Made by a program: the position numbers and the translations under genes
Source: Anaerolineae bacterium
GTDB taxonomy: Bacteria > Chloroflexota > Anaerolineae > B4-G1 > SLSP01
Assembly (NCBI GenBank): GCA_034437255.1
Contig: DAOTUH010000126.1
Coordinates: 19,198 to 83,197, forward strand
Length of the DNA: 64,000 nt
Reading direction: 5' to 3'
Shown here: positions 3,375 to 20,206 of the stretch, one piece after another
Numbering within the stretch: the first letter of the stretch is position 1
Layout: each line of letters opens with the position of its first letter
The notes under the pieces: generated by a model
What the model saw: the letters and a program-made list of their open reading frames with translations, nothing else
The model's database searches: none
Told to the model about the DNA's origin: nothing

Positions 3375-4772
3375 CTATCGACAGCCGTATGCGCGTGCCT
3401 CGCGCTCCAACCGGCAGCCGCCGCCGCACATCTCAAGATCAGGGCAATCCCAGCAGGTCTCCGGAAGCCCCGCCGCCTGCGGATTCTCCTCACGCTCCCG
3501 GAAACTACGGAAGAGATCGCTGTTCCAGATGGCGTCCCAGGGATCGCGCAGCAGGTTGCCCGCCGTCACGTAGTACGATTGGCAGGGCAACACGTCGCCA
3601 TTAGGCTCGACGCAGATGGAGTACTCAGCGGCGTTGCAGCGTTTGGGCGCCAGGCCCAGCGCCACCGGCGAGAGCTCGCAGTAGTCGGTCACGGTGTACC
3701 AGAGAAAGCGCATGCCCAGCTCGGCAGCGCGTTCCCGCACGGCCACCAGCACCGACGCCATCTCCTCCGCCGGGATCGCATCGGGCGTCGCCAGGCCGCG
3801 TCCCGCGTAGATTATGCCATTCATCGCGAAGGTCGTCAGGCCGAGGTTGTGCACGAAATCGACGGTCTCCAGAGCGTGATTGACGTTGCGGCGCGTCAGC
3901 GTGGTGTTGGTGATGGTGTGGAAATCGCACACCAGTGCGTTCTCAATGCCCCGCACGGTCTGCTTGAAAGCGTCAGCGTTGACCATAGCGTTGTGCACGT
4001 CGGCGCGGCAGGACTCCAGCGTGATCTGCACGTGGTTGAGGCCCGCGTCGCCCAGCGCGTCCACCAGCGGTCGATGGGAGAGCGCGCGCCCGTTGGTGTT
4101 CATCCCCACGATCTGGCCCAGGTCATCGGCGTGCCGGACGATGGCGGGTAGGTCTGGGTGCAGCGTCGGTTCGCCACCGGTGAGGATGATGTGCGGCACC
4201 CCCACGTCGGCCAGCGTCTCCAGCACGCGGAACCAGTCTTCGGTGGGCAGCGGGGGCATCTCACGTCGGCCCGGCTCGTTGTAGCAATGCGCGCAGGCGT
4301 TGTTGCACCGGTAGGTCAGCGCCAGGTCGGCTTTGAAGGGCGCGCTGACGGGCGTGCTAAAGAGCGGCGCGAATTCCACCAGCGACTGGACCGCGCAGGT
4401 CGGGCAGCCGGATTCGACGGTACGGAACCGGTCGATGAGTTCGTAGACCTGGGCCAGCGCCGCGTCGAGCGCCGCGCGCGCCACACCCCGGTACCGTTGT
4501 GCGAGCGCCGCGCGCGCCCGAGCCTGCGGCACGTCATCCAACGCCAGTTTCGCCATCTCCGTCGCCGTCGCGTTGAGATGCACGGCGTCGGTCACGTCGG
4601 CGAAGAGCACGCCCGATCCGTCCTCTGCAACGCGCAGATGCAAGCGCCGCTTGCCCTCCCTCACCGGCACCGGATACGTGTACAAGCCCGGTTCCGGCGG
4701 TGCAGGCGGCGCTAACAGCGTCCACGCTGCCTGAACCTCTTCTTGAACCTGCGCCCACCAGCTGCCCATCAA
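3375..4772 (-). CDS. Radical SAM/SPASM-domain enzyme (PqqE/MftC-like) with fused N-terminal PqqD-like RRE
   Basis: LTYRCNNACAHCYN carries the CxxxCxxC AdoMet-cluster motif. GGEPTLHPDL. C-terminal Cys-rich SPASM region CWDCPDLEMCGGGC. N-terminal LHLRVAEDGSGVLFADVTDAVHLNATATEMAKLAL resembles a PqqD/RRE fold. Confidence 0.85.
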   Translation of the reverse strand: MMGSWWAQVQEEVQAAWTLLAPPAPPEPGLYTYPVPVREGKRRLHLRVAEDGSGVLFADVTDAVHLNATATEMAKLALDDVPQARARAALAQRYRGVARAALDAALAQVYELIDRFRTVESGCPTCAVQSLVEFAPLFSTPVSAPFKADLALTYRCNNACAHCYNEPGRREMPPLPTEDWFRVLETLADVGVPHIILTGGEPTLHPDLPAIVRHADDLGQIVGMNTNGRALSHRPLVDALGDAGLNHVQITLESCRADVHNAMVNADAFKQTVRGIENALVCDFHTITNTTLTRRNVNHALETVDFVHNLGLTTFAMNGIIYAGRGLATPDAIPAEEMASVLVAVRERAAELGMRFLWYTVTDYCELSPVALGLAPKRCNAAEYSICVEPNGDVLPCQSYYVTAGNLLRDPWDAIWNSDLFRSFREREENPQAAGLPETCWDCPDLEMCGGGCRLEREARAYGCR

Positions 4773-4954
4773 TTACCTCTCATATCGGCCCGCGCGTAAC
4801 CCGCGCCGCGTCTACGAAGCAGGCACCTACACAACCAGACGCTCACCGGACGCGCCGCGCCACCGCTTCCAGCCGCGTTAGCGGCGTCGGGTTGATGCGC
4901 TGGTTAGGTGCCTCCGCTCTGCATACCAACCTCTTTACCCAAAAATCCTTGTTT

Positions 4955-6229
4955 TCAATCGGCTATTGCCATACCTCGTTCAACTACCTCAATCGCTTGT
5001 CCAACACCGTCTTCAGCACGGATCCGCTCACCCAATGCATCAGCATGTACCCGAATGTTTTTGTCTGTGACTGCCGTGGCAATCGCCGCTCCCAACTTCC
5101 TCACTGTCATTCTCTTGCGCGGTATTGCCTTCGGCCCAACACCAAGCCTCATTACCTGCCGCGCCCAGAATGGCTGATCACCAAAGTGGGGCACCAACAC
5201 CGAAGGCACACCTGCTCGCAACCCCGCAGCCGTCGTTCCCGCTCCACCATGATGCACCACCGCGGCTACGCGCGGGAATAGCCAATTGTGAGGCACCGAT
5301 TCAAGTTTGAACACACCATCCGGCAAATCAACACTCTTCAGCCCGCCCCAACCTGACGCAACCAGCCCTCGTTGCCCTGACCGCTTCAGCGCTTTCAGGA
5401 CGATCTCGGTCGTTGATTCTGGATCACGGCTTGACATACTTCCAAAGCCAACATATACCGGAGGTGGGCCAGCCTCAAGGAATCTCACTAAATCGGTGGG
5501 GGGGAGCCAATCTGACGAGTGGTCAAGGAACCAGTATCCTGTGACATGAATGTGCTCATCCCAATCCGGTGGCTTAGGGACGACAGATGGACTGTAGCTG
5601 TAAAGCATGGGTACCGGTCGTCCATCCAGCTGGCCATAGGGCCACTTGAAGAGCGAAATTGGCGGCAATCCCAACTGCTTTTGCCGCCAGTGGTTGATGA
5701 AGCGCCCCGTGAGCTGTTGTGCAAATTGCTCAACCATGATGTGTGTCGAGAGATTGTAACTGCCGCCTAAGGGGAGGAAAGGAAACGCCAGGTTCGGAAA
5801 GCTGCGGGTACGATTGAAGAAAGGAAACGGTAAGGCCCAAAAACAAGGCAATCTTTGCTTCTCAGCAATATGATAAGCTCCTATTCCAAGCGTTGAAAAG
5901 ATGATGGCTTCCGCCGTCTGAGAAGCCTGCCAGACTCTACCCGCGAGTTGCTCCAGCGTCGGCTGCATCATACGGATGATTTGCCACATTCCCTGAATGA
6001 CATTGCGGCCCGATTCTAGCACATCCCACGCAGCTTCTGTCCCCAACAACTCTCGTGCGTTCATGCCAAGAGAAAAGAAATCCAATCCTTGACTTCTGAC
6101 AAACCTCTCGAAATCATCAGTCGTGACAAAAGTCACTTCATATCGCCTGGTCTTCTGCAGCCCTACGCCCAGCGCCACGAGTGGTTGCACGTCACCACGC
6201 GAGCCAAGTGCCAAAATCATACTGCGCAT
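4955..6229 (-). CDS. GT1-family glycosyltransferase (MGT/UDP-glycosyltransferase-like)
   Basis: N-terminal ILALGSRGDVQP. C-terminal HHGGAGTTAAGLRAGVPSVLVPHFGDQPFWA is a UDP-sugar binding signature. AAGGAAA SD before the ATG at 6229. Confidence 0.85.
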   Translation of the reverse strand: MRSMILALGSRGDVQPLVALGVGLQKTRRYEVTFVTTDDFERFVRSQGLDFFSLGMNARELLGTEAAWDVLESGRNVIQGMWQIIRMMQPTLEQLAGRVWQASQTAEAIIFSTLGIGAYHIAEKQRLPCFWALPFPFFNRTRSFPNLAFPFLPLGGSYNLSTHIMVEQFAQQLTGRFINHWRQKQLGLPPISLFKWPYGQLDGRPVPMLYSYSPSVVPKPPDWDEHIHVTGYWFLDHSSDWLPPTDLVRFLEAGPPPVYVGFGSMSSRDPESTTEIVLKALKRSGQRGLVASGWGGLKSVDLPDGVFKLESVPHNWLFPRVAAVVHHGGAGTTAAGLRAGVPSVLVPHFGDQPFWARQVMRLGVGPKAIPRKRMTVRKLGAAIATAVTDKNIRVHADALGERIRAEDGVGQAIEVVERGMAIAD

Positions 6230-6299
6230 CGGCGTTTCCTTGGATATTCTACGTCAACCATTCATAGATTTAACAGCAAAGGGCACCTAACCAGCACGT

Positions 6300-6450
6300 G
6301 TGTGGCTCGGTGGGACACCGGCCACAGCGCATCGTGTCAGCATTCGCACTGTGTGGCTCGGTGGGACACCGGCCACAGCGTATCGTGTTAGCATTCGCAC
6401 TGTGTGGCTCGGTGGGACACCGGCCAAAGCGTATCGTGTCAACATCCAGT
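6300..6450. repeat. Tandem direct repeat, 3 x 51 bp
   Basis: GTGTGGCTCGGTGGGACACCGGCCACAGCG(C/T)ATCGTGT(C/T)AGCATTCGCACT repeated three times with 1-2 mismatches. Contains the hairpin core CGGTGGGACACCG. Confidence 0.9.
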
Positions 6451-6452
6451 AC

Positions 6453-6794
6453 CTACCACTTGGGCGCTTCTTCGATTTGATAGCTGGCGCCGCAGTAGGG
6501 GCACTCGACAAAAATCGCGCCGGCGCGCACCGAGAGATTATCTTTATCCAGAGTTCCGCCGCAGTTTCGGCACGTCATCTCTTCCAGCTTCACGTCGCCG
6601 CTAAGATCGATCTTCTGCACGATGGTCTTCTCCTCGTGCTTGGGCCGCACGCGGGTGAGATAAATCATCACGCCGGCCCCGGCCATCAGGATCACGCCGA
6701 CGATCACGCGGATAAACTGACCTTGCGCGCCGACGACGAACATCACGCCAAAGAACGCCAACACCGCTGCGATGATATAGGTCACAATCTCCAT
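6453..6794 (-). CDS. Small membrane protein with C-terminal zinc-ribbon
   Basis: TM helix IVTYIIAAVLAFFGVMFVVGA and a second hydrophobic segment. CRNCGG...CPYCG zinc ribbon. ACGGAGGTT SD before the ATG at 6794. The track's longer start at 6836 is judged less likely. Confidence 0.65.
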   Translation of the reverse strand: MEIVTYIIAAVLAFFGVMFVVGAQGQFIRVIVGVILMAGAGVMIYLTRVRPKHEEKTIVQKIDLSGDVKLEEMTCRNCGGTLDKDNLSVRAGAIFVECPYCGASYQIEEAPKW

Positions 6795-6910
6795 GGAACC
6801 TCCGTTGTGAATGGATGGTTTGCGCAATACTCTCATTATAGTCTGATTTGGACAGCAGCATAGCGGCGGGACATGAAAGGTCTTCTCAGGAAACGGTGAC
6901 GATCAAGTTG

Positions 6911-6919
6911 TGCTATACT
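6911..6919 (+). promoter_or_regulatory. Possible extended -10 promoter element (TGcTATACT) upstream of 6970 gene
   Basis: TGnTATACT lies 50 nt upstream of the GTG start. No convincing -35. Confidence 0.25.
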
Positions 6920-6969
6920 GGTAGAAACGATGAGCAGTCCATGTCCATCGACCTAAGGAGGCAACTTCT

Positions 6970-8169: not shown

Positions 8170-8261
8170 GCGAAAAACGTTAGAACGTTTGAACGTTCAA
8201 ACGCTCTAACGTCTCCGCTTGTGTTCTCGGGTTTCGTGTACCAGCTCGTTATCGTGCGCGG

Positions 8262-11156
8262 CTAGCGTGGTCGATGTCCCGTCAATCTCTCTCGCAGTTC
8301 GATAAACGCTTCGAGATCGCCTTCGGCGAGGAGGCGGGCCTGGTCGAGCCACGTGGACGTGTAACGGACGCGAATGCCGCTCTCGCGGAGTATAGCTTGA
8401 ATCTCCTCCGGCGTCAGGGCCGCCAGCTGCTCGAAGAGCGCGATGCCGGCCGCGTTGAGCAGCTTCTCGCTCTTTGGCCCCAGCCCCCAGATGCGCTGGA
8501 GGTCGTCGGGCTCCGTCAGCTTGCGCTCTTGCACCGGCTCCGGCTTGGCTGCCGGCACAGCAAAGGAGATCGCCGCGGTCGGCGGCGTGGGCATGCGCCA
8601 GCGGTAATCGTGCTGCATGGCCTGCTTGAAATCCTCCTGGATGCCGGACTTATCGTGGATCTTCCACTGATCGCCCGTCCAGCGGTAAAGCAGCAGCCCA
8701 CGGATCTGTTGTGCATACGGCCGCATGTTCCAACCATCGATCTCCTCGTAGATTTTGCGCACCCAGCCGATGTTAGCGTTGATCCACCCCTGCGACGCCG
8801 GATTGTCGCACGTGGGCGCGTTGTCCGGGCGACAGACGTGATTCGTCTCGGTGATGTAGACGGGCAGATCCTTCCACTTGTAGGGAATGCGCTCCATAAA
8901 CTGTCGATAGGTCTGGAAATCGAAGTAGTGATCGTTCAACAACGGATCGCCAAAGGTTTCCAGATGCGTGATGGCTTCCAGCGACGGTCCGTGCGTGTAG
9001 GCGTGCAGGATGAAACCATCCAGCGAATCGATGTTGTCCATCATCTTCTGGAAGTAATCTAAGGGCCGCCAGCGCACATTGCCCAGCAGGGGCATGGACG
9101 AAGAGTTGTAAGGGTCGACGGCGCCAGGACAGACCAAGGCGTTGGGCAGCACGTCCTTGATGGCAGCGTAGATCTTGTTGAAGGCCTCCGCGTAAAGCTC
9201 TGCCGTGATGTGTTGCTTAGGATGATGCAGCCCGCCCGGATGCTCGCTGGGATTGTTTTGCTCGTTGCCAATCTGGATCGTCCAGGTGTAGTCATCCGGC
9301 GAGAGATCGTCCCGCTTGAGGTAAATCTCAACCCAGCGCGCGCACGCCTGCGCGAACTCATCGTAGTGGCGGGATTCGGGCAGCGTGCCGCCGGGATGGT
9401 AGCCATGATTGAGACGTACGATGACACCGTAGTCCTTCTCCATCCAATCCTGGACGCGGTTGCGGATATCCTGATTCAGACCGACGTCCTGGGGACGCCG
9501 CCGTACTACCTCTGTGAAGAAGACCCAGCCCTTCTTCCCCCCGGCGTTGAAGAGATTGCGGATCGGGTCCCGCGTGTAGTGGTCGTCGCTAAGCTGGGCA
9601 GCATGCATGCCGAAGATGTGGGGCGAGAGCCCGCGATCTAGCCAGCCGTCGCGCGCCTGTACCCGCTGATCTTTCTGCTCGGGACGACGCACATACCAGG
9701 CCGCCACATGTCCCTCTCTCCGCGAGGGCGTCCGAACCTTGATCCATTTCTCTTGCTCGCCGATTTTGTTCCCCGTGACTGTAGGATCTTCCAGAGAGCG
9801 CAACACGGCACCATGCGGCACCCACCAGACCTGGACATGATCCGTTCCCGGCCCGCTGCGCACCCGCAGCCCGTACTCGGGGCTTTCCACGACAACGAAT
9901 CGAGCGGGCTCGCCGGACGGCGTCGGTTTTGGCTCAACCTCGGTCTCGAGCTTGAGATACCAGGCCGCCGTGTAGCCGCTCTCATCTTCCGCCGTCTGAA
10001 CGTGTAGCCACTCGTCGTGCTCGCCGATTTTGCGCCGCACCTGGTCGGCCGGTTCTAGCGCTTTAATGATCGCACCATCGGGCATCTGGGCGACGATGTC
10101 GTGCTCCGTGCCCGGCCCGCTGCGGAGCTTGAGCGGCATCTCTGGGCTTTCTACCACTAACAACAGCGTAGGCGTCGGCTTCTCCTTCTCCGGCAGCCGC
10201 AGATACCACGCCGCCGTGTAGCCTTGTTTCCCGTCCGGTGTCTTGACCTTGAGCCATTCCCCGTACTCGCCAATCTTACGGCGCACGTCGATGTCCGGCT
10301 CCAACGCCTTGAGCACCGTCCCGTCGGGCATCTCGGCGACAATCTCATGTTCCGTGTCCGGCCCGCTGCGCAACTTGAGGGGGGTCTCGGGGCTCTGGAC
10401 GACGACGGAGAGCGTCGGCTCCGGCTGTTCCTCCTCCGGCAGTTTCAGATACCAGGCAGCCACGTACCCGTTCTGACCGTTGTGCAGCCGCACCCACAGC
10501 CACTGACCGTGCTGCCCGACCTTCTTGAGCGTGACATCCACCTTTTCCAACGAACCCAGGACAGTCTCATGATCCACGCGCCCAACTTGCTCGCTGCCCA
10601 CGTAAGGCCTGGCCCGCACGTTCAGGAACCCAACCTCCGGGCTGTGCACTTGCACCTTCATGGTGGGCTTAGCGGGTGGTTCCGGCTCCACGCCACCCTC
10701 CGAAAACGGCAACAGATAGGGGCGAGGATTCACGATATCGTAGGGAAAATAGGTCTCGTTGCTTCCCGTCGCGCCATCTTTCTTAAGTGTCAGGTGAAGA
10801 TGCGCACCAAAGGAGTTCCCACTATTCCCGCCCAACCCGATCAGCTGCCCGGCCCGCACGGCCTGGCCTTCGATGACGACGACGGAGGAAAGATGCGCGT
10901 AGACGCTGGTGAAGCCATTGCCGTGCTGAACGCGAACCTGATTGCCGTAGGGTCTCTTGTTGGGATTGGAGTTACCATCAAGACTAACGCGACTCACGAA
11001 GCCATCGGCGACGGCATAGACCTCACTTCCTTCCGGCGCCTTGAAATCCAGCCCCTCGTGTCCAGGCAACCCAAACTTCTGGTAGAACTCCGGTCGGACA
11101 CCGAATTCCTGGGTGATCCTGTTAAACTCTGTCGGCCAACGCATACGAAAACTCAT
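8262..11156 (-). CDS. Multidomain cell-wall hydrolase: M23 peptidase + 4 SH3b-like repeats + clan GH-A glycoside hydrolase + C-terminal helix-hairpin-helix
   Basis: HEGLDF...HLHLT is an M23 signature. Four near-identical ~95-aa repeats end in AAWYLKLP. IGNEQN and YITETN resemble GH-A acid/base and nucleophile motifs. IWGLGPKSEKLLNAAGIALFEQLAALTPEEI is HhH-like. GGAGGG SD before the ATG at 11156. No signal peptide. Confidence 0.8.
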   Translation of the reverse strand: MSFRMRWPTEFNRITQEFGVRPEFYQKFGLPGHEGLDFKAPEGSEVYAVADGFVSRVSLDGNSNPNKRPYGNQVRVQHGNGFTSVYAHLSSVVVIEGQAVRAGQLIGLGGNSGNSFGAHLHLTLKKDGATGSNETYFPYDIVNPRPYLLPFSEGGVEPEPPAKPTMKVQVHSPEVGFLNVRARPYVGSEQVGRVDHETVLGSLEKVDVTLKKVGQHGQWLWVRLHNGQNGYVAAWYLKLPEEEQPEPTLSVVVQSPETPLKLRSGPDTEHEIVAEMPDGTVLKALEPDIDVRRKIGEYGEWLKVKTPDGKQGYTAAWYLRLPEKEKPTPTLLLVVESPEMPLKLRSGPGTEHDIVAQMPDGAIIKALEPADQVRRKIGEHDEWLHVQTAEDESGYTAAWYLKLETEVEPKPTPSGEPARFVVVESPEYGLRVRSGPGTDHVQVWWVPHGAVLRSLEDPTVTGNKIGEQEKWIKVRTPSRREGHVAAWYVRRPEQKDQRVQARDGWLDRGLSPHIFGMHAAQLSDDHYTRDPIRNLFNAGGKKGWVFFTEVVRRRPQDVGLNQDIRNRVQDWMEKDYGVIVRLNHGYHPGGTLPESRHYDEFAQACARWVEIYLKRDDLSPDDYTWTIQIGNEQNNPSEHPGGLHHPKQHITAELYAEAFNKIYAAIKDVLPNALVCPGAVDPYNSSSMPLLGNVRWRPLDYFQKMMDNIDSLDGFILHAYTHGPSLEAITHLETFGDPLLNDHYFDFQTYRQFMERIPYKWKDLPVYITETNHVCRPDNAPTCDNPASQGWINANIGWVRKIYEEIDGWNMRPYAQQIRGLLLYRWTGDQWKIHDKSGIQEDFKQAMQHDYRWRMPTPPTAAISFAVPAAKPEPVQERKLTEPDDLQRIWGLGPKSEKLLNAAGIALFEQLAALTPEEIQAILRESGIRVRYTSTWLDQARLLAEGDLEAFIELRERLTGHRPR

Positions 11157-11244
11157 AATGAAACCCTCCTTGCCTCGTGGATTTAACGTCCCTTTTGGCA
11201 TCTTCCGGGATACTTGGAGCATCCCGGAAGATCAGTGAAAACCC

Positions 11245-11631
11245 TTACTCCTGGGCCTGCTGCACAGCTTTGAGCGCCGCGGCTGCGGCATTCCCCACGG
11301 ATTCGATCATCTTGGCACGGTTGTCCATGGCCTGCTGGACGGTCTGGGTGTGGATGTCCCAGACGCCCCTATCCACCGTGCCGTCCTCGGCCTGGGGTAT
11401 GCAGATATCGATGTCGCCGTCCAGTCGGACCTGGGTGAAGGCGCGTAGCTCGATCTTGCCCTCGCCGGCGGCGCCCGCTACGTCCGGTCGCTCAGCGACG
11501 AAAATCTGCACTTGATCGTGGGGCGTGGTGTACGTTCGCACGTCCAGGACCGCCACGTCGCTGACGAAGGACTCCACCTTTTCCGCCAGGTCACTCGCGA
11601 ACTTCCGAACCGCTTCCTGTAAGTTAGCCAT
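11245..11631 (-). CDS. Hypothetical 128-aa protein, homologous to the C-terminal domain of the adjacent caspase-like peptidase
   Basis: Shared motifs are TYTT, DGDID and W.IH...V..A...RA with residues ~560-650 of the 12405-14375 product. Lies 12 nt downstream of the upstream gene in the same operon. Confidence 0.6.
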   Translation of the reverse strand: MANLQEAVRKFASDLAEKVESFVSDVAVLDVRTYTTPHDQVQIFVAERPDVAGAAGEGKIELRAFTQVRLDGDIDICIPQAEDGTVDRGVWDIHTQTVQQAMDNRAKMIESVGNAAAAALKAVQQAQE

Positions 11632-11643
11632 TGTCCTCTCCTT

Positions 11644-12408
11644 TTAGATTAGAGTTTCGATATCGGGCCACGAAGCCCGTAGTTCTTTCAATACGTCTCG
11701 CACAAACCGCCACGTGGCGGGTAGCAACAGGACCTGTCCTCCGGGAACCGAGGCTTTCACCGCCAACCCGGCGGCGCCCGTCGCCACCACAGAGACGAGA
11801 CGCGTCAGCGCGATGCGCGAGGCCAGCGCCAGATGCACTGCCTGCCGGTGTTCCGCTATCGAGGACGGCGTGAGCGCCGGCGCCCAGGTCGTGCCGAAGT
11901 CGCCCGTCCAGCCCACCTCGGTGCGACCGACGAACCGACCGCCCACGGTGGTCTCGATGCGGACGTAGTGCGAGACCATCTCGCGCACCCGCTCCACAAA
12001 GCTGTTCCATTGTTTGTAGGCGTCGCTGTCCATGACGCGCTCTGATTCACCCGGCCCAAACGCCACCGGCCGCTGCAGCGTGGTGACGCTTTGCCGCAGC
12101 GCTTGCCGAGGATCGGTCAGACGATCACCCGTGCCAAAGGCCACCGGCTCTGACGGGTCAAACCGTGCCAGTTCCCGCTCGGCGTGCGCCAGATCACGCT
12201 GGCTCAGTTCCAGCGCTTTCGCCCGCGCTGCCAACTCGGTCTGCGCCGCCTCTGGGTTTTCTGACAGGTCGACGCGCCAGGTCAGCACGTCGGGTGCTGC
12301 CTCGCCGGCGCCGAAGGAGACGGCCTCCGCTTCGACGGCCCAGATGCCCAGCGGATCTTCGGCCTCCGACCGCGAGACCCCGGTCAGCGTGAATCCGGCG
12401 CCGGTCAT
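11644..12408 (-). CDS. Hypothetical 254-aa protein, translationally coupled (ATGA overlap) to caspase-like gene
   Basis: ATG at 12408 overlaps the TGA of the upstream gene. Internal repeat PVAFGTGDRL / PVAFGPGESE. No recognised domain. Confidence 0.5.
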   Translation of the reverse strand: MTGAGFTLTGVSRSEAEDPLGIWAVEAEAVSFGAGEAAPDVLTWRVDLSENPEAAQTELAARAKALELSQRDLAHAERELARFDPSEPVAFGTGDRLTDPRQALRQSVTTLQRPVAFGPGESERVMDSDAYKQWNSFVERVREMVSHYVRIETTVGGRFVGRTEVGWTGDFGTTWAPALTPSSIAEHRQAVHLALASRIALTRLVSVVATGAAGLAVKASVPGGQVLLLPATWRFVRDVLKELRASWPDIETLI

Positions 12409-14375
12409 ACAGGCTTCAGGCTCTTGAGCAGATTCGTCGCCATCTCCGCCATGGCCTCCAGGAACTGCGCCCGGTTGATCTGGGCCTCCTTGACCATGTC
12501 GGCGTGAATCTTCCACAGCACCTCGTCGACACCGCCGTCCGCTTTCTCCGGCACATAGCTCTGGATGTCCCCGTCAAACTCGATACGCGTCAACGCACGC
12601 GGCGTCGCCGCAGCCTCTGCATCTTTGATGACAGCTGCGAGATCCTCAGTGGTGTAAGTTTCCACCTCCAGCGTGGGGATCTCCTCGGCGGCTTTGCCCA
12701 GCGCCTCCGCCAGTTGATCGGTGAAGGTGCGCAGCGAGTCGGTCAGCCCGGCGAACTGATCCCGCAGGCCGAAGGCGACGGCGTAGTCCTCGGCTCCTGA
12801 TGGCTCTGGTGCGAGCGCCGTGGTCGGTTCGCTTTCTTCCGAGGGTGCTGAGGCGGCTTCGCTCTCTGCTTCTGCCAGCTTCTCTTTTGTGCTCTCGCTG
12901 ATAGTGATGGTGGGACGCTCCGTCTGCGGGCTCTCTTCGTCCTCCGCCACCGAGAGGCGCACCGCCGGATCGCCGATGATGACGTAGCCGCGCGCGTCGT
13001 TGTTCGCCGTCCACATACCCGCTAGCTTCACGTCGTCGCGCCGCTTGTCGAACTCGTTGACCTCCTCGATCTCGCTGGCCAGCACCACGGAGAGCTCGGC
13101 GTGGCGCTCGTTGAACCACTCCAGAGCCGCGCCCACGGGATAACCGGCCATCAGCTGATCCAGCGTGTCTTGAAAGACCTGTAACTGGCGCCCTGCCCCG
13201 CTCCACAGGAAAGAGTATCCCCAGGCGCGCTCGACGTGGCCCACGACGGCCAACGCGCCGCCCTTGGGATGGCCCAGGAGCCGTTGCGGCAACCGCGCGA
13301 TAAAGGCGTGGGGCGCGATCTCGGCCGGCTCATCAAAGGCCCTGTGCGCAAACTGATCCAGCTTGGGCGTTCCCGCACCGTAGCAGGCGAAGAAGAAAGC
13401 CATGGTGCCGGCCAGCCGCGCGTTCGAGGCGACGTCATCGGCCGAGAAGTAGAACGCCTCAGGAATCGGATCGTGCCACTCACGGGGGCCAGGCCAATCC
13501 TCACAGAGCAGCGCGCCCTGGTGCTTGAGCTGGCGCGGGTCTCCTTTGGGAAAGCCCATCCCGTGACTGGCCGAGAAGAACAGTACCGGCGTCCCGTCGC
13601 CGCCCAACAGCGTTTCGAGACGCGCCTTGGTCGCCTGCCCGATGAACTGGCTATCCCACGACGGCTGTTTGTCCGACATGGCCTCGACCAGGGGACGCAC
13701 CAACTCCTTGGCACTCATCTCCGTCGCCCGGTCGTGCTGGTTCTTCACACCAAAGAATCGCGCGCGACGCGGCAGCCGTAAATCGCCGGTCTCCGCTGCC
13801 ACCACACTCTCCGCATACTGCGCGTACTCCTCGAGCGTGTCGAAGAAAATGCGCCCGACGGCATACTGCACGTCGAGCTGATACTGGAAGCGGTAGGGAA
13901 TCGTCTCTGGCCCGCCGACGATCAGCAGATAGTAGGGCACTTTGGCGGGATTGGCCGGCCCCGGCCCCATGTTGCGCGGATCGCGGCCCAAGAAATCCAA
14001 GTAGGAGTCGGCCGGCCGGTAGCCCGCCGCGCGCATGTACTCCTGATAGAATCGTTCGTCGTCCTGCGTGGCCTGCTCCTTGCGCAGATCCAACAGCGGC
14101 TTGAGGGCCTCACGGATCGCCGGGGCCCGTTCGTCCTTTGCTCCGAAAATTACGGCCCATCCCGTCTCCGCCAGGTTCGTCTGATCGGCATTGATGCCAA
14201 AATGTGGCTGCATGCTGTCATGGCGATTCTTCAACTCCCGGTAATACTCGTCATCTTTGCTCAAGGGCTCGCCCAGCGCGACCGACGCCACGTCCTCAGG
14301 CAGCATGGGCGGCGTCCAATACTTCCCGCTGGCACCATTGATACCATTGACGTAAAGCAGCTTCTCTTCATTCAT
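12405..14375 (-). CDS. Clan CD caspase/gingipain-like cysteine peptidase with extra C-terminal domain
   Basis: His motif LFFSASHGMGFP and Cys motif FFFACYGAGTP in the order and spacing typical of C14/C25 peptidases. ATG at 14375 overlaps the NTPase stop by 8 nt. Confidence 0.75.
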   Translation of the reverse strand: MNEEKLLYVNGINGASGKYWTPPMLPEDVASVALGEPLSKDDEYYRELKNRHDSMQPHFGINADQTNLAETGWAVIFGAKDERAPAIREALKPLLDLRKEQATQDDERFYQEYMRAAGYRPADSYLDFLGRDPRNMGPGPANPAKVPYYLLIVGGPETIPYRFQYQLDVQYAVGRIFFDTLEEYAQYAESVVAAETGDLRLPRRARFFGVKNQHDRATEMSAKELVRPLVEAMSDKQPSWDSQFIGQATKARLETLLGGDGTPVLFFSASHGMGFPKGDPRQLKHQGALLCEDWPGPREWHDPIPEAFYFSADDVASNARLAGTMAFFFACYGAGTPKLDQFAHRAFDEPAEIAPHAFIARLPQRLLGHPKGGALAVVGHVERAWGYSFLWSGAGRQLQVFQDTLDQLMAGYPVGAALEWFNERHAELSVVLASEIEEVNEFDKRRDDVKLAGMWTANNDARGYVIIGDPAVRLSVAEDEESPQTERPTITISESTKEKLAEAESEAASAPSEESEPTTALAPEPSGAEDYAVAFGLRDQFAGLTDSLRTFTDQLAEALGKAAEEIPTLEVETYTTEDLAAVIKDAEAAATPRALTRIEFDGDIQSYVPEKADGGVDEVLWKIHADMVKEAQINRAQFLEAMAEMATNLLKSLKPV

Positions 14376-17300
14376 AATTACTCTCCTCTGCGAATCCCTC
14401 CGCGTCCAAGTCCAACTCACTTTCCACGTACTGCCAGGATAAATCCAACACGTCCTCGAACCGTACCAGATACCGCCGTATGGTGCCATCCCTGGAACCG
14501 GAGGCCAGATAGTGGCCATCGGGGCTGAAGGCCAACGTGTACACGATGGGATCGGTATGCCCAGGAAGCACAGCCATCAACGTTGGCGCGCGGGCTGGGA
14601 ATCGATCCAACTTCCAGAGGCGCACGTGACTATCACGCGCCGCCGTCGCCAGGTACAGCCCGTCGGGTGAGAAAGCGACACCATAGACGAAGGCCGGATG
14701 CTTCAACGGCGCTACCACGGTCGTCATGGTCTGCATGCTCCAGAGGCGCGCCGTCTGGTCCCACGCGCCGGAGGCCAAATATTGGCCATCAGGGCTGAAG
14801 TCCAGGGCAGGCACGTAGTTGCTGTGCCCCGTCAGCGTGACCGCCATCGTGACGGAGAGGCCACGCTCGGTCTCTCGCACATCGAAGAGGTGGATGTTCC
14901 CACCCAGGTAGCCCAACGCCATCCGGTCCCCCTGAGGACTTAATGTCCCACCCCAGAGGCCGCCGCGCGGAATCGTCACGCGATGATCAAGCGTCCAATC
15001 CTCCGTCCGCCAGACAAAAGCCTGCCCGCCATTGGAGACAGTGAGGAGGAAGCGACCGTCCGGCGTGAAGAAGGCCCGCTCCACATCTGCACGGTGTCCT
15101 GTCAACGTGGCGATAAGCGCACCCGTGCCCGTGTCCCATACCCTCGCATTGTTATCCGTGGCGCAGGAGACCAGATATGCGCCGCTAGGACTATACACCA
15201 GGTCCCAGAGCTCACCGCCAAGATAGCCTTCGATCTCCCGGACCACGTTGCCGTGCACCTGGGACCAGATACGCACCTCTCCGCTCTTACTGGCCGAAGC
15301 GAGGAACGTGCCATCAGGGCTGTACGTCACCTTGCGCACCAAGTCGCTGTGTCCCGTGAGCGTCGAAAGACCGGCCTGCCGGGGGAAATCCCGGTCCCAG
15401 ATGCGCACCGTGTTGTCACCGGCGCCGGCAGCCACCCAGCGGTCATCCGGGCTGAAAGCAACGTCCAGCACTACGTTGCCCGGCCCCCTCAACACGCTGA
15501 TGGCGTGCTGGTTACGCGAGCCTACGTCCCATAGATGCACCGTCCGATCCCGCGAGCCGGAGAGCAGATAGCGCCCGTCGGCACTGAAGGCCAGGGTTCT
15601 CACCTCGGCGCTGTGCCCGACCAGTGTCAGAACGGCCTCACCTGTGTCGAGATCCCAGAGTCGAATCGTTTTATCGGCGGAGGCCGAGGCCAACAGCGGT
15701 TCCGTCGGGCTGAAAGCCACCGCTTCCACGGCTTCGGTATGGGCCGTCAGTTGGCGCGGCGGGCTGACCGACAGCAGGCTAGGACCTAGAGCCCGCAACT
15801 GCCAGAGCCAAACCGTCCCGTCGTAGCACGCCGCTGCCAGGGTGAATGGCTCTCCAGTAACCATGGCTTCGATAGGTGAAGCGGTGCCTGTGAACGCAAG
15901 ATCGGCCACGCGGCGCGGCAGCTCGTCCAGGGTGAGCAGCAGCTCCGGCACCAGCGTATCGCCCCGCCGGCCCAGGGACCAGATCCGTATCAGCCCCTCT
16001 TGATCAGGTGAGTAGACATCCCGCAGCGTTTCCCCATAATCCCCACCCGTGGCAAGATAGTAGCCCTGCGGGTCGAAGGCCACGGTGTAGATCTCATCGT
16101 ACATCCCATCCGGCGTTATGACGCGCAGGCTTTCTACCCACGTCTCGGCCTCTGTGTCCCAGATTTCCACGATGCCGCCGGTCTCTCCATCGTCGCCGCC
16201 GGTCGCCAGAAACCGTCCGTCGGGACTCAACGCAAGATCGTAAACGGCACCCCGCGTCGGGAGAGGGATTAGCGTTTTCACGTTCATGCGAGTGTCGATG
16301 CGTTGCACGCCGCCGGCGGGCAGTGCTGTATAGAGAAAGCGACCGGTCTCGTCATAGGCTACGCTATGCACTTGATCCATCAGGCCCCCATACACCGAGA
16401 CGGGATAATACTCCTGCACCGCCTGGCGCAGCATGATTTGGGCCTCGTAGGTATTGATCTCGCCCATCAGCGTCTGGCTGCTCTCCTGCCACCAGCCGCG
16501 CAGACTGGGCTGAGTCCCGGCGCGGGCCAACCGGATGCTCTGCTCCCGGTCGGTCTCCAACACCGAGCGTGCCTTGGCGGCCAACTCGCGGGAATAGGCC
16601 TGCAGGCCGTTACGCATGGCTATCCACGCCAGCAGGCTGACCACAACCAGCACCATCCCGGCGAAGACGGCGCCCACGAGACGCAAACGGCGTGCGCGGC
16701 GCTGCGCTTGATCGGCCCGGCGGCTGGCTTCCAAGAACTCCTCTTCGAAGGGCTCCAGCTGGTCGGGATGGACCTCGGCCCAGGCGAGCGCCTCCTCCAG
16801 CGTCGCGTCGAGGTACAGGAGCGCCGCGTCGTCGGTCTCCTTCCACCGCTTAGCCGTGGTGCGCAGCGGCGTCTGCCGCGCCGCCTCCCACGTGCGGTTC
16901 GACTGCCGGATGGGATCGATAAGCCGGTCGTGGACCAGCTCATACCAGCGGGCACCGGCGCGCAGGTCCGAGCGGATGAGGTGCCGGGCATCCAGCACAT
17001 CGACGGCGGTGTTGGGCAGACCGGCGGTCTCCTCCGGCCCGCGCATAGCCAGGCCGCGCGTTCCCACCGACGTGATAAGATGCTCGGCGGTCCAGCGACG
17101 CACCTGCCGTTCGGGCACCTCGGTCTCGGCGATGACGTGGGCGATGGCGCTCTCGTAGAAATCGACCAGGGCACGGTCAATATCGCCGTATTGCTGAACC
17201 TCGTTCCACTGGATCAGGTTGTCTTCCTGAGCCGGCAGGTTCGCCCACAGCCGCTGACAGACCACCTGCAGCTGCACCGGCTCGACGAAGCGCCCCAGCA

Positions 17301-18048
17301 CCTCAACCTCGTCGTCGCGCCCATACCGCTGCACCTTGCTGCGTCGCAGGTCGTCGACCAGGCGCTCGGCCACGCCCTCGTCGAAGGGAACGCCGGTCTG
17401 GGCCGCCGGCTTGCGGACGGCTTGGATGGCGCCCTCGACGCCCAGCCGCTCCATACGGAAGCGAGCGCGGAGCCGGCGGGGCAGCAGCGGCGCGTAGGGC
17501 TCGACTTCGGCAACGTAATCCTCCCGCATGGCAAAGACCACGCCCAACGTGGGCAGCGCGTCCAACGCCCCCTCAACCTGGACGAAGAAACTCTCGGCGT
17601 CCTGCCAGCGGTGGCGGTGCGCCGTAAAGAGCTCCTCGAACTGATCGACGATGAGCAGCGGCGGGCGGTCGTCATCGGGCAGATACGTCTGCAAGAAATC
17701 GAGCAGGGACTGTTCGCCCAGTGGCGCCGGCGGCTCGTCCTCGCCGACCAGCGAGAGCAGCACACTGAAGACGAAGACGTTGTCCACGTCCGCGTCGGTC
17801 AGGCCGGGCGGCAGATCGTTGGCGACGCGCACCACGGGCAGCACGTTGAAAAGCTCCTCCTCCAGCGCGAGGATGACCTCGGCGTTGAGCAATGACGTCT
17901 TGCCGGCGCCAGAGGGCGCGTAGAAGAGCACCACGCGCTCGGCCAGGATCAGGGAGAGCAAGTCGCGTGCCTCGCGGTTGCGCCCGAAGAAATTCTTGCG
18001 GTCGGCGCGCTCGTAGGGGCGGGGACCGACGTAGGGATTTCCTTTCAT
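14368..18048 (-). CDS. STAND-like (nSTAND1-like N-terminus) P-loop NTPase - single TM helix - WD40 beta-propeller
   Basis: The N-terminus NPYVGPRPYERADRKNFFGRNREARDLLSLI...LFYAPSGAGKTSLLNA shows an nSTAND-like signature. Hydrophobic helix LVGAVFAGMVLVVVSLLAWIAM near residue 480. At least 10 WD40 repeats (GHSAEVRTLAFSADGRYLLSGSRDRTVHLWD and others). Start ATG 18048 overlaps the upstream stop as ATGA. Confidence 0.85.
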   Translation of the reverse strand: MKGNPYVGPRPYERADRKNFFGRNREARDLLSLILAERVVLFYAPSGAGKTSLLNAEVILALEEELFNVLPVVRVANDLPPGLTDADVDNVFVFSVLLSLVGEDEPPAPLGEQSLLDFLQTYLPDDDRPPLLIVDQFEELFTAHRHRWQDAESFFVQVEGALDALPTLGVVFAMREDYVAEVEPYAPLLPRRLRARFRMERLGVEGAIQAVRKPAAQTGVPFDEGVAERLVDDLRRSKVQRYGRDDEVEVLGRFVEPVQLQVVCQRLWANLPAQEDNLIQWNEVQQYGDIDRALVDFYESAIAHVIAETEVPERQVRRWTAEHLITSVGTRGLAMRGPEETAGLPNTAVDVLDARHLIRSDLRAGARWYELVHDRLIDPIRQSNRTWEAARQTPLRTTAKRWKETDDAALLYLDATLEEALAWAEVHPDQLEPFEEEFLEASRRADQAQRRARRLRLVGAVFAGMVLVVVSLLAWIAMRNGLQAYSRELAAKARSVLETDREQSIRLARAGTQPSLRGWWQESSQTLMGEINTYEAQIMLRQAVQEYYPVSVYGGLMDQVHSVAYDETGRFLYTALPAGGVQRIDTRMNVKTLIPLPTRGAVYDLALSPDGRFLATGGDDGETGGIVEIWDTEAETWVESLRVITPDGMYDEIYTVAFDPQGYYLATGGDYGETLRDVYSPDQEGLIRIWSLGRRGDTLVPELLLTLDELPRRVADLAFTGTASPIEAMVTGEPFTLAAACYDGTVWLWQLRALGPSLLSVSPPRQLTAHTEAVEAVAFSPTEPLLASASADKTIRLWDLDTGEAVLTLVGHSAEVRTLAFSADGRYLLSGSRDRTVHLWDVGSRNQHAISVLRGPGNVVLDVAFSPDDRWVAAGAGDNTVRIWDRDFPRQAGLSTLTGHSDLVRKVTYSPDGTFLASASKSGEVRIWSQVHGNVVREIEGYLGGELWDLVYSPSGAYLVSCATDNNARVWDTGTGALIATLTGHRADVERAFFTPDGRFLLTVSNGGQAFVWRTEDWTLDHRVTIPRGGLWGGTLSPQGDRMALGYLGGNIHLFDVRETERGLSVTMAVTLTGHSNYVPALDFSPDGQYLASGAWDQTARLWSMQTMTTVVAPLKHPAFVYGVAFSPDGLYLATAARDSHVRLWKLDRFPARAPTLMAVLPGHTDPIVYTLAFSPDGHYLASGSRDGTIRRYLVRFEDVLDLSWQYVESELDLDAEGFAEESNYE

Positions 18049-20090
18049 CGTTGCGTCGCCTCCCACCGCTCGCGCAGCTCGGCCGTGAATTGATGTGTGC
18101 TACCCCAGAAGACGTTGATCTCAGCATCCTGGAAATACTGGCGCAGGAAGTGCTGCACGGCGCCTACGTCCTCCACCTTCCCACTGGCGCTGTCCAGTTG
18201 TACCGTGACGTGCTTGAAACGGTGTCGCTGATTGAGCGTGGTCACCAAGCCCCGCAGGATCACGCGAAACTCCCAATCGTAGAGGCTGTACCCGATGAAG
18301 AGCAGCGTGCTGTTAGCCAGCGCGCCCCGGATGTACGTGGGGATGCGCTCCATCTCCGCCGAGACCTTGACGAGGAAGTCGAGGTAGTGATCGGAGGTGA
18401 GCACCAGGGATTCCGGCACCTCGTCGTGACCGAAGAGATGGTAGACCAGCGGCGTGTCCGGCGTCGGCACGTAGTTGGGATCATCGGCAAAGCGGCTGGA
18501 GAGCCAATCCAGGTCGCGGTGCCAGGGGCAGATCTCGCGTTCAGCGTCTCGACCGCGCGCGGCTAGGGCCGCCGTCATGAAGTTATCGAGGTTGGTGGTG
18601 ACGTAGAGCGGCAAATTTAGATCTGCCAGCACCTCGTGCGGATCGTTAGGATCGTCACCGGCGATGCGCTGCCATTCCACTGCATCCACCAGATCCGACA
18701 CGCTCTCCGGCGGTTGGGATGGTTGCAATTCCTCCGGCAATCGCTCGTAGAAATGGTTCACCATGGTACTCAGCAGTTCGTAGCGGGGGAAATCCTCGCC
18801 CTGGCTGCTGGCGAGATACTGCGCCACCCACGGCAAGACGATGCGGTCGGCGAAGGGATAGGCGTGAAGTCGCGTCCACCCACCGGCGATTTCTCGGGGC
18901 AGGGGCAACCAGCGCCCATGCACTCTTGGCCCGATCACGGGGATGCACTTGCCGCGCTGGATCATACGCAGGAGTCCGGTCCAGAAGATCCGGGGATTCT
19001 GCCCACCCAGCACCGCGCCGCGCGCGTCGGCTTCGGCGCTCCACAGTTGGGCTGACTTGAGCCGCATAAAGAGCACGGGCACGGCAGCATCGGGGCGACC
19101 GGCGGAAAGCAACGTGCTCCGCGCCACGTTGAGCGCCACGTCCACCTGCCCGTCTTCAAGGAGTCGACAGTAGAACGTCGCGCTGAGCTTGCGGGCCGTC
19201 TCCACCGCCACAAAATCCTGCATGGCAACGACGGCGGGCACGCCGACGGCGACCAGCTTCGGCGCCAGTCCCCGGAAGGCGTCGCCGGTAGCCCGCTGCG
19301 CGCTCTGGCAGGCATTCAGAAAGATCAGGCGGGGTCGCACGTCCTGGCGCGCCAGCGTATGCACCAGCGCCTCGTCGGTAACGAGCTCCGTGGCGCCGTC
19401 CTCGTTCTGGAGAAAGAGCACGGCCCGCTCGCGCCGCCGGCTGTAGGCGCCGTGCCCCACGTAGTGCAGGATGTGATACCCTTCGCGCAACGCTGCTTCA
19501 AGCCGTTCCAGCGTGACGGGCGGCTCCAGAAAATCGAGGGCGATCTCGTCCTCGCTCATCTCTTCAAAAGCCGCCGTGAGCAGCGCGCGCTCGGTCTCCG
19601 TCTCCACCGGCGTCAGCTCGTAGGCCGATGCCAGATCACTGGGATTGGAGATGACCGCCAGCACACGAATGGGGCGTTCTTCGACGGCGCCGCCCCAAGG
19701 TAGCGAGACGGGCAGATAGCGCGAGAAGGGTGTCTTCGCCGTCGCCGAGAGCAGCGTCGTCCCGGTGTGGAGCAGTTCCCAGGGCAGCACGTGGAGCTCC
19801 GCCGCCTGCGCGTCGATGCGCAGCCTGATCCGGCGGCGTTCCGCTTGCCCGCGCACCTCGCTCCAGGCCTGGCGCAGCGCGTCGTCTTCTAGAAGCAAAT
19901 CGAGGAGCTGCTGCCCATCGGCTACGGGATCGCCGCTAGAGGTCCAGTTGGCCGCCTCCGCCGCCAGATAACCCCGGGGGAACTCCTGCTCTCCCTCAAG
20001 CGTGATCTCGACGGGATACCCTTGCTCTCGTCGGGGAAAGATGCGGACTTCCAAATCCGCGAATCCGTTCTTGGTGCCGGTTTCACGCAT
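18045..20090 (-). CDS. CHAT-domain protease fused to SIR2-like (SIR2_2-type) domain
   Basis: CHAT His/Cys dyad HYVGHG...LIFLNACQSA. C-terminal PLYVTTNLDNF...LLFIGYSLYDWEFRVIL matches SIR2_2-like motifs. ATG at 20090 with AAGGA SD preferred over the TTG at 20186. Confidence 0.8.
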   Translation of the reverse strand: MRETGTKNGFADLEVRIFPRREQGYPVEITLEGEQEFPRGYLAAEAANWTSSGDPVADGQQLLDLLLEDDALRQAWSEVRGQAERRRIRLRIDAQAAELHVLPWELLHTGTTLLSATAKTPFSRYLPVSLPWGGAVEERPIRVLAVISNPSDLASAYELTPVETETERALLTAAFEEMSEDEIALDFLEPPVTLERLEAALREGYHILHYVGHGAYSRRRERAVLFLQNEDGATELVTDEALVHTLARQDVRPRLIFLNACQSAQRATGDAFRGLAPKLVAVGVPAVVAMQDFVAVETARKLSATFYCRLLEDGQVDVALNVARSTLLSAGRPDAAVPVLFMRLKSAQLWSAEADARGAVLGGQNPRIFWTGLLRMIQRGKCIPVIGPRVHGRWLPLPREIAGGWTRLHAYPFADRIVLPWVAQYLASSQGEDFPRYELLSTMVNHFYERLPEELQPSQPPESVSDLVDAVEWQRIAGDDPNDPHEVLADLNLPLYVTTNLDNFMTAALAARGRDAEREICPWHRDLDWLSSRFADDPNYVPTPDTPLVYHLFGHDEVPESLVLTSDHYLDFLVKVSAEMERIPTYIRGALANSTLLFIGYSLYDWEFRVILRGLVTTLNQRHRFKHVTVQLDSASGKVEDVGAVQHFLRQYFQDAEINVFWGSTHQFTAELRERWEATQR

Positions 20091-20206
20091 GATCGTATCC
20101 TTGGCTATGGAAAATGCGCCACTTGAAGTGTGTCGGCCCAGATTCACCGAAGGTTCAAAAATAGTATAGCATAGATTTGAGGGCAAAACAATAGAGGTGT
20201 GGGAAG

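Follow-up and report, generated by a model that had tools for sequence, protein, structure and literature searches.

A small domain shared by a C25-like peptidase, a free-standing protein and probably the protein between them in an often STAND-linked gene cassette of Chloroflexota

Introduction

The window analysed here is a stretch of 64,000 nucleotides from an Anaerolineae bacterium (phylum Chloroflexota; assembly GCA_034437255.1, contig DAOTUH010000126.1, positions 19,198 to 83,197 of the forward strand). It contains six closely spaced minus-strand genes, encoding a CHAT-SIR2 protein, an nSTAND1-WD40 protein, a C25-like peptidase, a 254-aa protein referred to as MID, a 128-aa protein referred to as FREE, and an M23/SH3 hydrolase. 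We found that FREE is made up of a domain that also forms the C terminus of the peptidase (DomA), and that MID, encoded between the two, probably contains a diverged third copy (DomM). The shared segment is an autonomous, portable domain of ∼115 aa. Across related genomes the constant unit is the trio of DomA, MID and FREE, with a catalytic moiety that is usual but dispensable, and the domain is read most economically as serving interaction or assembly. The features on which the argument depends are the following.

12405 to 14375, minus strand: C25-like cysteine peptidase, 656 aa, clan CD, caspase/gingipain fold
12414 to 12755, minus strand: DomA, the shared domain at the peptidase C terminus, residues 541-654 (supported by BLASTP and the domain profile)
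11644 to 12408, minus strand: MID, 254 aa, between the peptidase and FREE genes
11752 to 12027, minus strand: DomM, probable diverged third copy, MID residues ∼128-219 (hhalign, shuffles, reciprocal HMMs, models)
11245 to 11631, minus strand: FREE, 128 aa, the shared domain alone, with Shine-Dalgarno AAGGAG

Results

The domain is shared by the peptidase and FREE

BLASTP aligned FREE residues 1-124 with peptidase residues 541-654 at 41 identities in 124 positions (33%, E=2e-18). A domain alignment, A1, was built from FREE homologues and peptidase C-termini, and an A1-type profile run against the six-frame translation of the window returned exactly two copies, at the peptidase C terminus and in FREE; the nSTAND1-WD40 and CHAT-SIR2 proteins of the window lacked the domain in the same search. 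The loci used for comparison were contigs with FREE homologues together with 41 loci in species-representative genomes. With the domain profile, related loci showed the same pair, a peptidase C-terminal copy and a free copy downstream, and both were present in the same order in 37 non-redundant loci. A preliminary description of this DNA had claimed a domain common to the 128-aa protein and the peptidase C terminus, the free-standing gene lying two ORFs downstream. The BLASTP match and the recurrence of the pair in complete related loci bear this out, the coordinates and peptides quoted there are correct, and FREE is indeed encoded two genes downstream, separated from the peptidase by the 254-aa gene. 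DomA matched the domain profile at E=2.8e-41.

The AlphaFold2 model of FREE (pLDDT 89) predicts long N- and C-terminal helices that form a stalk, a three-stranded sheet at its tip, and two short helices between the first and second strands. In A1, strand 1 carries a conserved L-E-V-x-T-Y-T-T, strand 2 L-R-A-x-T and the next turn D-G-D, after which come P, G and then W-x-x-H-x-x-x-V-x-x-A-x-x-N-R at the start of the last helix. The invariant or nearly invariant residues are T33, Y34, T35, T36, R63, T66, D71, G72, D73, H94, N104 and R105.

No model of the domain was present in Pfam, NCBIfam, PADLOC or PHROG, and no solved structure gave a convincing match (Pfam-A 2025, NCBIfam 20, PADLOC 2.0, PHROGs 4, plus PDB). 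At cut-offs of E≤0.1 for Pfam, PADLOC and NCBIfam and E≤0.01 for PHROGs, neither FREE nor MID matched any family, and a scan of every member of A1 and of the MID family alignment, A3, at E≤5 returned scattered noise only (for example MHC_II_beta, Poly_export and DUF2840). Sequence and profile searches of PDB with the alignments A1, A2 and A3, the peptidase and the large domain of the hydrolase found no meaningful match, and tblastn of FREE against phage and plasmid collections found none. Literature searches yielded no description of the domain, MID or the cassette.

A HMMER search of 1.84 billion representatives placed 724 clusters (at 50% identity) in the domain family at E≤1e-3 and 361 at E≤1e-10. 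A word-indexed search with the peptidase C-terminal domain had returned only 5 fragments, and it was the exhaustive profile search that revealed the family. In all of the 150 best of the 724 representatives, the domain was located at or near the C terminus or made up the whole protein: 80 had a peptidase region, 24 were free-standing with a start Met, 28 were short forms and 18 were fragments. In the short forms a start Met opens an N-terminal extension of low complexity, roughly 30-170 aa long, in which an F-G motif is frequent. Single representatives carried the domain on other modules, a CHAT protease (P0120) and an SH3-bearing hydrolase (P0164). Pfam recognized Peptidase_C25 in 28 of the 80 longer representatives (E≤1e-3), and CHAT, SH3_3 and a C39-like family in one each. 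Among the same 150, the domain was never N-terminal to another module or on an NTPase; none of them had it at the N terminus of a STAND NTPase, where the preliminary description had suggested looking for it.

MID probably carries a third copy

The MID family comprises at least 134 clusters. Their members are without exception unannotated and about 250-290 aa long, and the named sources belong to Chloroflexota; the database protein P0191 is identical to the MID of the window. When A1 and A3 were compared with hhalign, FREE 52-118 aligned with MID 149-211 at a probability of 79.5% (E=1.5e-5), the match following the pattern T-x-V-x-[FW]-x-G-D, P, H-x-x-x-V-x-x-A-x-x-x-R. A local rerun of the comparison gave 61.7% and E=7.7e-5, and with a broader domain profile the score against MID went down to 26.4 (P=0.0017), which is still above all 60 column-shuffled controls (12.7 ± 2.2, maximum 20.8); a reversed control scored 12.8. 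In reciprocal searches, an HMM of the MID C-terminal part recognized many members of a set of 190 domain sequences in one register, with E from 5e-6, and the domain HMM likewise recognized many of 120 MID sequences in one register, with E from 6e-5.

The AlphaFold2 model of MID (pLDDT 82.7, pTM 0.79) has an N-terminal part composed of a small sheet and helices, followed by a helix (128-146), three strands (149-155, 158-165 and 171-175), a long helix (181-219) and a further helix (224-245). Both the FREE and the MID model thus run from a helix through three strands to a long helix, save for the two short helices of FREE. Two hybrid arrangements were also found. The metagenomic protein P0076 (246 aa) joins the N-terminal two-thirds of MID, through strand 1, in register to the remainder of FREE, and may be a real recombinant or an assembly artefact. 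In locus L040 (8381-10369), the peptidase tail is nearer to FREE (45%) than to DomA (33%) and no MID or FREE genes follow, apparently as the result of a deletion via recombination between two domain copies. Because hhalign, the shuffle control, the reciprocal HMMs, the element order and the hybrids P0076 and L040 agree, we consider a third, diverged copy in MID to be quite probable. The preliminary description, concerned with the peptidase and FREE, overlooked that the protein between them probably has the domain too.

The C-terminal part of MID has an additional feature.

11674 to 11814, minus strand: MID hydrophobic end, residues 199-217 (IALTRLVSVVATGAAGLAV), PGG turn, amphipathic helix 224-245

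The mean hydropathy of residues 199-217 is 1.8 (Kyte-Doolittle, 19-residue). G211, A212, P222, G223, Q225 and P230 are invariant at this end in A3, as is the P-G-G-Q turn that follows the hydrophobic stretch.

The peptidase resembles family C25

The peptidase was assigned the start ATG 14375 (MNEEK...), which matches its homologues, rather than that of a longer 704-aa ORF. It consists of a catalytic region (∼1-475), a low-complexity linker (∼476-540) and the shared domain. Homologues score 26-41 bits against the Pfam model of C25 (best 40.6), some of them above the gathering score, and PDB searches detected no solved relative by sequence. Two candidate catalytic residues were identified, with conservation counted on 41 full-length homologues.

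13563 to 13565, minus strand: candidate catalytic His271 (SHG); His in 39/41 and the next residue, Gly272, in 40/41
13383 to 13385, minus strand: candidate catalytic Cys331 (FACYGAGTP); Cys in 39/41 and the preceding Ala330 in 38/41

We take this H-G / A-C pattern to be the signature of clan CD. To judge from these motifs and the family scores, the peptidase is presumably C25-like and active.

The trio is conserved across genomes

Nearly all loci come from Anaerolineae, Thermoflexales and other Chloroflexota metagenome-assembled genomes (MAGs), with two labelled Myxococcales and one Pseudomonadota. Wherever the contig was complete, a tblastn map gave the order DomA, MID, FREE. The catalytic moiety is more variable: in L027/L029 and L052, DomA is a protein of 142-169 aa with no peptidase, and in L054 the catalytic part (472 aa) and DomA (188 aa) are encoded by separate ORFs.

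The mean identity was 0.487 among DomA copies and 0.511 among FREE copies from the 37 non-redundant loci. DomA and FREE of the same locus were 0.346 ± 0.042 identical (n=37), compared with 0.352 ± 0.041 across loci (n=1332). By these identities, DomA and FREE are two old orthologous lineages and not locus-matched pairs. Such a pattern is expected of fixed, non-interchangeable subunits within a single complex, and not of homotypic adaptors matched by locus. At the level of the domain the three gene products, MID probably included, are ancient paralogues.

Several loci have additional or different genes. L001-L004, L042, L044 and L046-L050 contain a second peptidase paralogue of 754 aa, with a ∼275-aa N-terminal extension and without the shared domain, and a second free-standing domain paralogue of 123 aa (in L001 at about 4660-6924 and 10425-10796). 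A second peptidase is found downstream of FREE in L032, L035 and L036, the Myxococcales- and Pseudomonadota-labelled MAGs, and L032 and L036 have the nSTAND1-WD40 gene on the opposite strand; these three loci represent either the cassette outside Chloroflexota or mis-binned contigs. In L054 (2511-8350), a 1242-aa and a 719-aa protein, the latter with a caspase-like LLIGIDYY motif seen by eye, precede the cassette in place of CHAT-SIR2 and nSTAND1, which suggests a different upstream sensor or protease pair.

A linker motif tracks the catalytic domain

A motif of the form A-V-[SA]-[FY]-[GSA] occurs three times in exposed loops of the N-terminal region of MID, is conserved across the MID family, and recurs in linkers of the peptidase and the hydrolase; FREE is without it.

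12310 to 12321, minus strand: MID motif 1, VSFG, residues 30-33, within a predicted disordered loop (pLDDT <50 at 31-37)
12133 to 12144, minus strand: MID motif 2, VAFG, residues 89-92, between two helices; F91 nearly invariant in A3
12055 to 12066, minus strand: MID motif 3, VAFG, residues 115-118, just before DomM; pLDDT <50 at 117-124
12768 to 12779, minus strand: peptidase linker VAFG (YAVAFGLRDQ, residues 531-540), directly N-terminal to DomA
8559 to 8570, minus strand: hydrolase AAISFA, residues 883-888, in the linker between the large domain and the helix-hairpin-helix domain

Peptidase homologues, like many of the short DomA proteins, preserve the peptidase motif in the form x-[FY]-G-hydrophobic. 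That of the hydrolase is kept as A[AV][SA]F[GSA] in L005, L014 and L016-L018, where the rest of the linker is variable. A loose form of the pattern matches MID three times, against ∼0.2 expected by chance according to a rough hand estimate of our own from amino-acid frequencies. The CHAT-SIR2 protein contains no match to it and the nSTAND1-WD40 protein five, of which the VAFSPDG-like matches are presumably the ordinary WD40 repeat strand.

The MID motifs have decayed in both peptidase-less lineages, L027/L029 and L052, and in L027/L029 the DomA motif has decayed too; the hydrolase of L029 stops right after a DYRWR motif, with no linker. In L054, where the peptidase is split, two of the three MID motifs are retained, and L005, which has a peptidase and no STAND gene, retains all motifs. 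Because of this distribution of loss and retention, the motif tracks the catalytic domain and not the shared domain or the sensor. The simplest reading, suggested by two independent losses, is that it would be a recognition or cleavage site. Two other roles were considered and rejected: binding by the shared domain, as the motif decays with catalytic loss although three domain copies stay, and docking on the STAND WD40 propeller, as L005 has the motifs and the peptidase and no STAND.

Operon layout and upstream genes

The remaining features of the operon are as follows.

18045 to 20186, minus strand: CHAT protease-SIR2 fusion, first operon gene, likely start ATG 20090
14368 to 18048, minus strand: nSTAND1 NTPase with WD40 beta-propellers, NLR/Apaf-1-like sensor, start ATG 18048
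8262 to 11156, minus strand: M23/SH3 wall-hydrolase-like protein, sixth gene, likely start ATG 11156 with a GGAGG site before it
11200 to 11232, minus strand: perfect 15-bp hairpin with a 3-nt loop (ATCTTCCGGGATGCT / AGTATCCCGGAAGAT), in the FREE/hydrolase spacer
8183 to 8198, minus strand: terminator-like hairpin and T-run, 3' of the hydrolase gene

From CHAT-SIR2 to MID the genes overlap: ATGA combines the CHAT-SIR2 stop with the nSTAND1 start, the beginning of the peptidase gene shares 8 nt with the end of the nSTAND1 gene, and GTATGA holds both the peptidase stop and the MID ATG. FREE begins 12 nt past MID, with its own strong ribosome-binding site (AAGGAG), and is separated from the hydrolase gene by a spacer of 88 nt. 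The hairpin in this spacer is without a U-tract and overlaps the spurious upstream ATG of a 986-aa hydrolase ORF, the gene probably starting at ATG 11156 behind the GGAGG site. This hairpin might set the dose of the hydrolase, acting as an element for processing, stability or attenuation. The hairpin at 8183-8198 is the probable end of the operon.

The CHAT-SIR2 protein matches Pfam CHAT (E=8.8e-30) and SIR2_2 (E=1.2e-20), with ThsA-like SIR2 matches in PADLOC, and the nSTAND1-WD40 protein matches nSTAND1 (E=6.9e-36, residues 11-411) and WD40 (E=4.5e-107). An N-terminal adaptor was not found on the latter, in which the nSTAND1 profile begins already at residue 11. Among 26 informative non-redundant loci, 17 have nSTAND1-WD40 directly upstream on the same strand; the other nine have no STAND gene in that position, seven lacking one and two having it downstream on the opposite strand. 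In L005 a divergent DegV gene lies upstream of the cassette instead. CHAT-SIR2 precedes nSTAND1-WD40 in most loci where the sequence reaches; the tblastn map gave no CHAT-SIR2 match before nSTAND1-WD40 in L034, L038 and L039. The association between cassette and sensor is frequent but facultative.

The wall hydrolase

The hydrolase is composed of an M23 peptidase, four SH3b modules, a large unassigned domain and a C-terminal helix-hairpin-helix domain, the last with weak matches to TfoX_C and DUF4332. Pfam gave M23 at E=2e-25 and SH3_3 at E=8.3e-32, and PHROG matches were to endolysins and metallo-endopeptidases. A hydrophobic N-terminal segment is not evident, no stretch having a hydropathy above 1.22. 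The large domain (residues ∼470-880) has no Pfam or PDB match; its GNEQN and ITETN motifs recall, in our judgement, glycoside hydrolases of clan GH-A. A related large domain ends a 1127-aa hydrolase encoded upstream of the cassette in L027/L029. That 1127-aa protein may have a lytic-transglycosylase-like start, as read by eye, and its middle may lie behind the single C39-like match. Hydrolases of this leaderless multidomain kind are linked to the cassette in two different gene orders.

Discussion

A proposed tri-copy assembly and what weighs against it

The arrangement is best explained as a whole by a tri-copy assembly that would tether a protease to its substrates in a death or lysis module, a proposal to which we give about an even chance. 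In this scheme, the DomA, MID and FREE copies would assemble a hetero-oligomer that tethers the peptidase to MID. Comparison of genes and of monomer models leaves the assembly role itself evenly poised between right and wrong. Obligate subunits of one complex fit the data because DomA and FREE form two fixed orthologous lineages, and in favour of the scheme loci that lack the catalytic moiety (L027/L029, L052) or encode it separately (L054) still keep the trio. The substrates of the peptidase would be A-V-S-F-G type linker motifs, located in MID, in the linker of the peptidase itself and in the adjacent M23/SH3 hydrolase. Processing would sever the domain-plus-hydrophobic half of MID from the N-terminal region, release the peptidase from DomA and remove the helix-hairpin-helix tail of the hydrolase; this step is a tentative proposal that we put at somewhat less than an even chance. 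The freed hydrophobic C-terminal half of MID and the hydrolase would then damage the envelope, and lysis as the outcome is doubtful. Most genomes have the cassette directly behind CHAT-SIR2 and nSTAND1-WD40, and there it would act as their executioner arm.

A number of observations weigh against this proposal. The peptidase of the window matches Pfam Peptidase_C25 (PF01364) at E=6.8e-4 with a score of 19.4 bits, the cut-off being 23 bits. Just two independent peptidase-less lineages connect the motif with the peptidase, and an invariant charged residue, such as most clan CD peptidases need at P1, is missing from the motif. The AlphaFold2 model of MID shows its hydrophobic segment packed into a soluble helical hairpin. 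Of 45 loci, only 9 have a similar hydrolase next to the cassette, mostly fairly close relatives of the window. Finally, the most conserved residues of the domain (T-Y-T-T, R, D-G-D, H, N-R) are polar and lie in or near the predicted sheet and where the C-terminal helix begins, which would also fit a ligand-binding or catalytic site and not a mere docking surface.

Alternative explanations

The preliminary description compared the domain to effector-associated or adaptor domains of STAND-based systems. An autonomous and portable domain with a plausible assembly role stands from that comparison; the coupling to STAND is not supported. In its strict form, as an effector-associated domain (EAD) analogous to Death or CARD that recruits the peptidase to an activated STAND protein by homotypic contact, this explanation is highly improbable. 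It would account for the position of the cassette directly downstream of CHAT-SIR2/nSTAND1-WD40, in the window as in the 17 informative loci, and for a portable, terminal domain behind a flexible linker, and the principle is documented for nSTAND1 systems (PMC7159879, PMC10907252). However, neither the STAND nor the CHAT-SIR2 protein has the domain and no NTPase fusion occurs among the 150 best representatives, same-locus copies are no more alike than cross-locus copies, and the cassette lacks an upstream STAND in L005, L020, L045, L027/29, L052 and L054. A role for the domain as a sensor, in which a small molecule (e.g. a SIR2 product) or a peptide switches the peptidase on, is very unlikely too, although some bacterial caspase-like proteases are turned on by nucleotide signals. 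The near-invariant residues, polar for the most part and placed in or near the predicted sheet and the beginning of the last helix, would suit a ligand site, G-D, H and R are retained even in the diverged copy of MID, and a SIR2 enzyme is encoded in the same operon. The same residues could equally be a buried structural network, though, and the cassette is also found with no SIR2 gene nearby, the domain resembles no known ligand-binding fold, and three paralogous copies are not expected of a simple sensor.

It is also conceivable, if unlikely, that FREE is a decoy or inhibitor resembling CARD-only proteins, which caps the C-terminal domain of the peptidase and keeps it monomeric or inactive until a trigger displaces FREE; an inhibitor module was the other option raised in the preliminary description. 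FREE is the domain alone, with no motif or other module, is always co-encoded and has its own strong ribosome-binding site, and some loci pair two free paralogues with two peptidases. Yet FREE is kept in L027/L029 and L052, where the catalytic domain of the peptidase is missing, matches DomA in sequence conservation without showing co-adaptation within loci, and as a decoy would leave the third copy in MID unexplained. We similarly doubt that the cassette is a housekeeping or developmental module of filamentous Chloroflexota, for controlled wall remodelling, filament breakage or export of the leaderless hydrolase, with STAND adjacency being secondary. In several genomes it stands alone among ordinary metabolic genes, it is linked to leaderless multidomain wall hydrolases in both gene orders, it is almost confined to Anaerolineae and Thermoflexales, and it has no match in phage or plasmid collections or PADLOC. 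On the other hand, the tight same-strand and often overlapping linkage to CHAT-SIR2/nSTAND1-WD40 recurs in loci whose free copies are 39-87% identical to that of the window, and the varying gene content (extra paralogues, fusions, deletions) is typical of conflict systems.

Comparison with known systems

EAD1-11 were described in NTP-dependent conflict systems of multicellular bacteria by Kaur, Burroughs, Iyer and Aravind in 2020 (PMC7159879) and 2021 (PMC8195603). In these systems the same adaptor is found on NTPase and effector, neighbouring copies being most alike (PMC7159879), and an nSTAND1/EAD8/trypsin example is known (PMC10907252). The domain described here resembles EADs in being small, portable and duplicated in neighbouring genes of a conflict-type locus, one copy being on a peptidase, and in its nSTAND1/WD40, CHAT and SIR2 context in filamentous bacteria. 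Unlike EADs, it is absent from the NTPase, is C-terminal and is tied almost exclusively to one peptidase family (fusions in the 150 representatives: 80 C25-like peptidase, 1 CHAT, 1 SH3 hydrolase; a C39-like match in 1 of 80 scanned). Moreover, its adjacent copies are no closer than non-adjacent ones, and it has no match in Pfam, which is expected to include EAD and Trypco models. As with Trypco1 and Trypco2 (PMC7159879), small proteins of unassigned function faithfully accompany a peptidase in conflict loci; here, in contrast, the accompanying domain is also fused to the peptidase itself. Homology to Trypco was not detectable, a single one of 28 domain members giving Trypco1 at E=0.071.

Like the gingipains and PorU of family C25, the peptidase shows a family-wide, if weak, Pfam match and has H-G and A-C dyad motifs. 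It differs from them in that the window protein falls below the gathering score, in having no signal peptide and no immunoglobulin-like or T9SS C-terminal domains, and in belonging to a cytoplasmic family restricted to the operon, with no PDB relative by sequence. Caspase-1 is a protease with an oligomerisation domain, CARD, and adjoining genes encode CARD-only proteins. The parallel is that the protease carries the domain and a neighbouring gene encodes the domain alone. The present domain is, however, predicted to be an alpha/beta stalk and sheet and not a six-helix Death fold, is C-terminal instead of N-terminal, has a third copy in a protein with a hydrophobic end, and persists as a free copy without the protease. 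In bacterial gasdermin modules, a caspase-like protease is encoded beside a gasdermin, often with NLR-like repeat proteins. The cassette similarly has a protease of clan CD type beside a ∼250-aa protein possibly activated by cleavage of exposed linkers; neither a gasdermin fold nor membership of that sequence family was found for MID. A holin-endolysin type of lysis cassette pairs a leaderless muralytic enzyme with a small membrane protein. Here the M23/SH3 protein has PHROG endolysin matches and no hydrophobic N terminus, MID has one hydrophobic stretch (mean hydropathy 1.8) and no match to a holin family, and the hydrolase adjoins the cassette in only 9 of 45 loci.

Significance

What appears to be new is the domain, its triplication in one cassette, the motif and a possible coupling to a wall hydrolase; conflict loci of multicellular bacteria in which a protease occurs with a duplicated small domain are a known theme. 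Read in its fullest form, the cassette would be a self-contained, protease-triggered lysis device of filamentous Chloroflexota, in which a latent complex of peptidase, membrane-active MID and regulatory subunit, often activated by STAND/CHAT-SIR2, cuts A-V-S-F-G linkers, so that the hydrophobic half of MID would breach the membrane and the leaderless M23/SH3 hydrolase would be set free. We rate this as rather unlikely; if true, the device would parallel caspase-gasdermin pyroptosis in function while using unrelated folds. Mapping of the NLR-like STAND systems of multicellular bacteria is advancing fast, and many of their downstream modules are still anonymous. One such module is defined here by its domain family, its conserved set of three genes, a candidate motif for processing and a candidate connection with wall hydrolysis. 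If the lysis model is true, it would represent an independent invention of protease-gated cell death, and if it is false, there is still a new domain family that deserves its own database entry and a structure.

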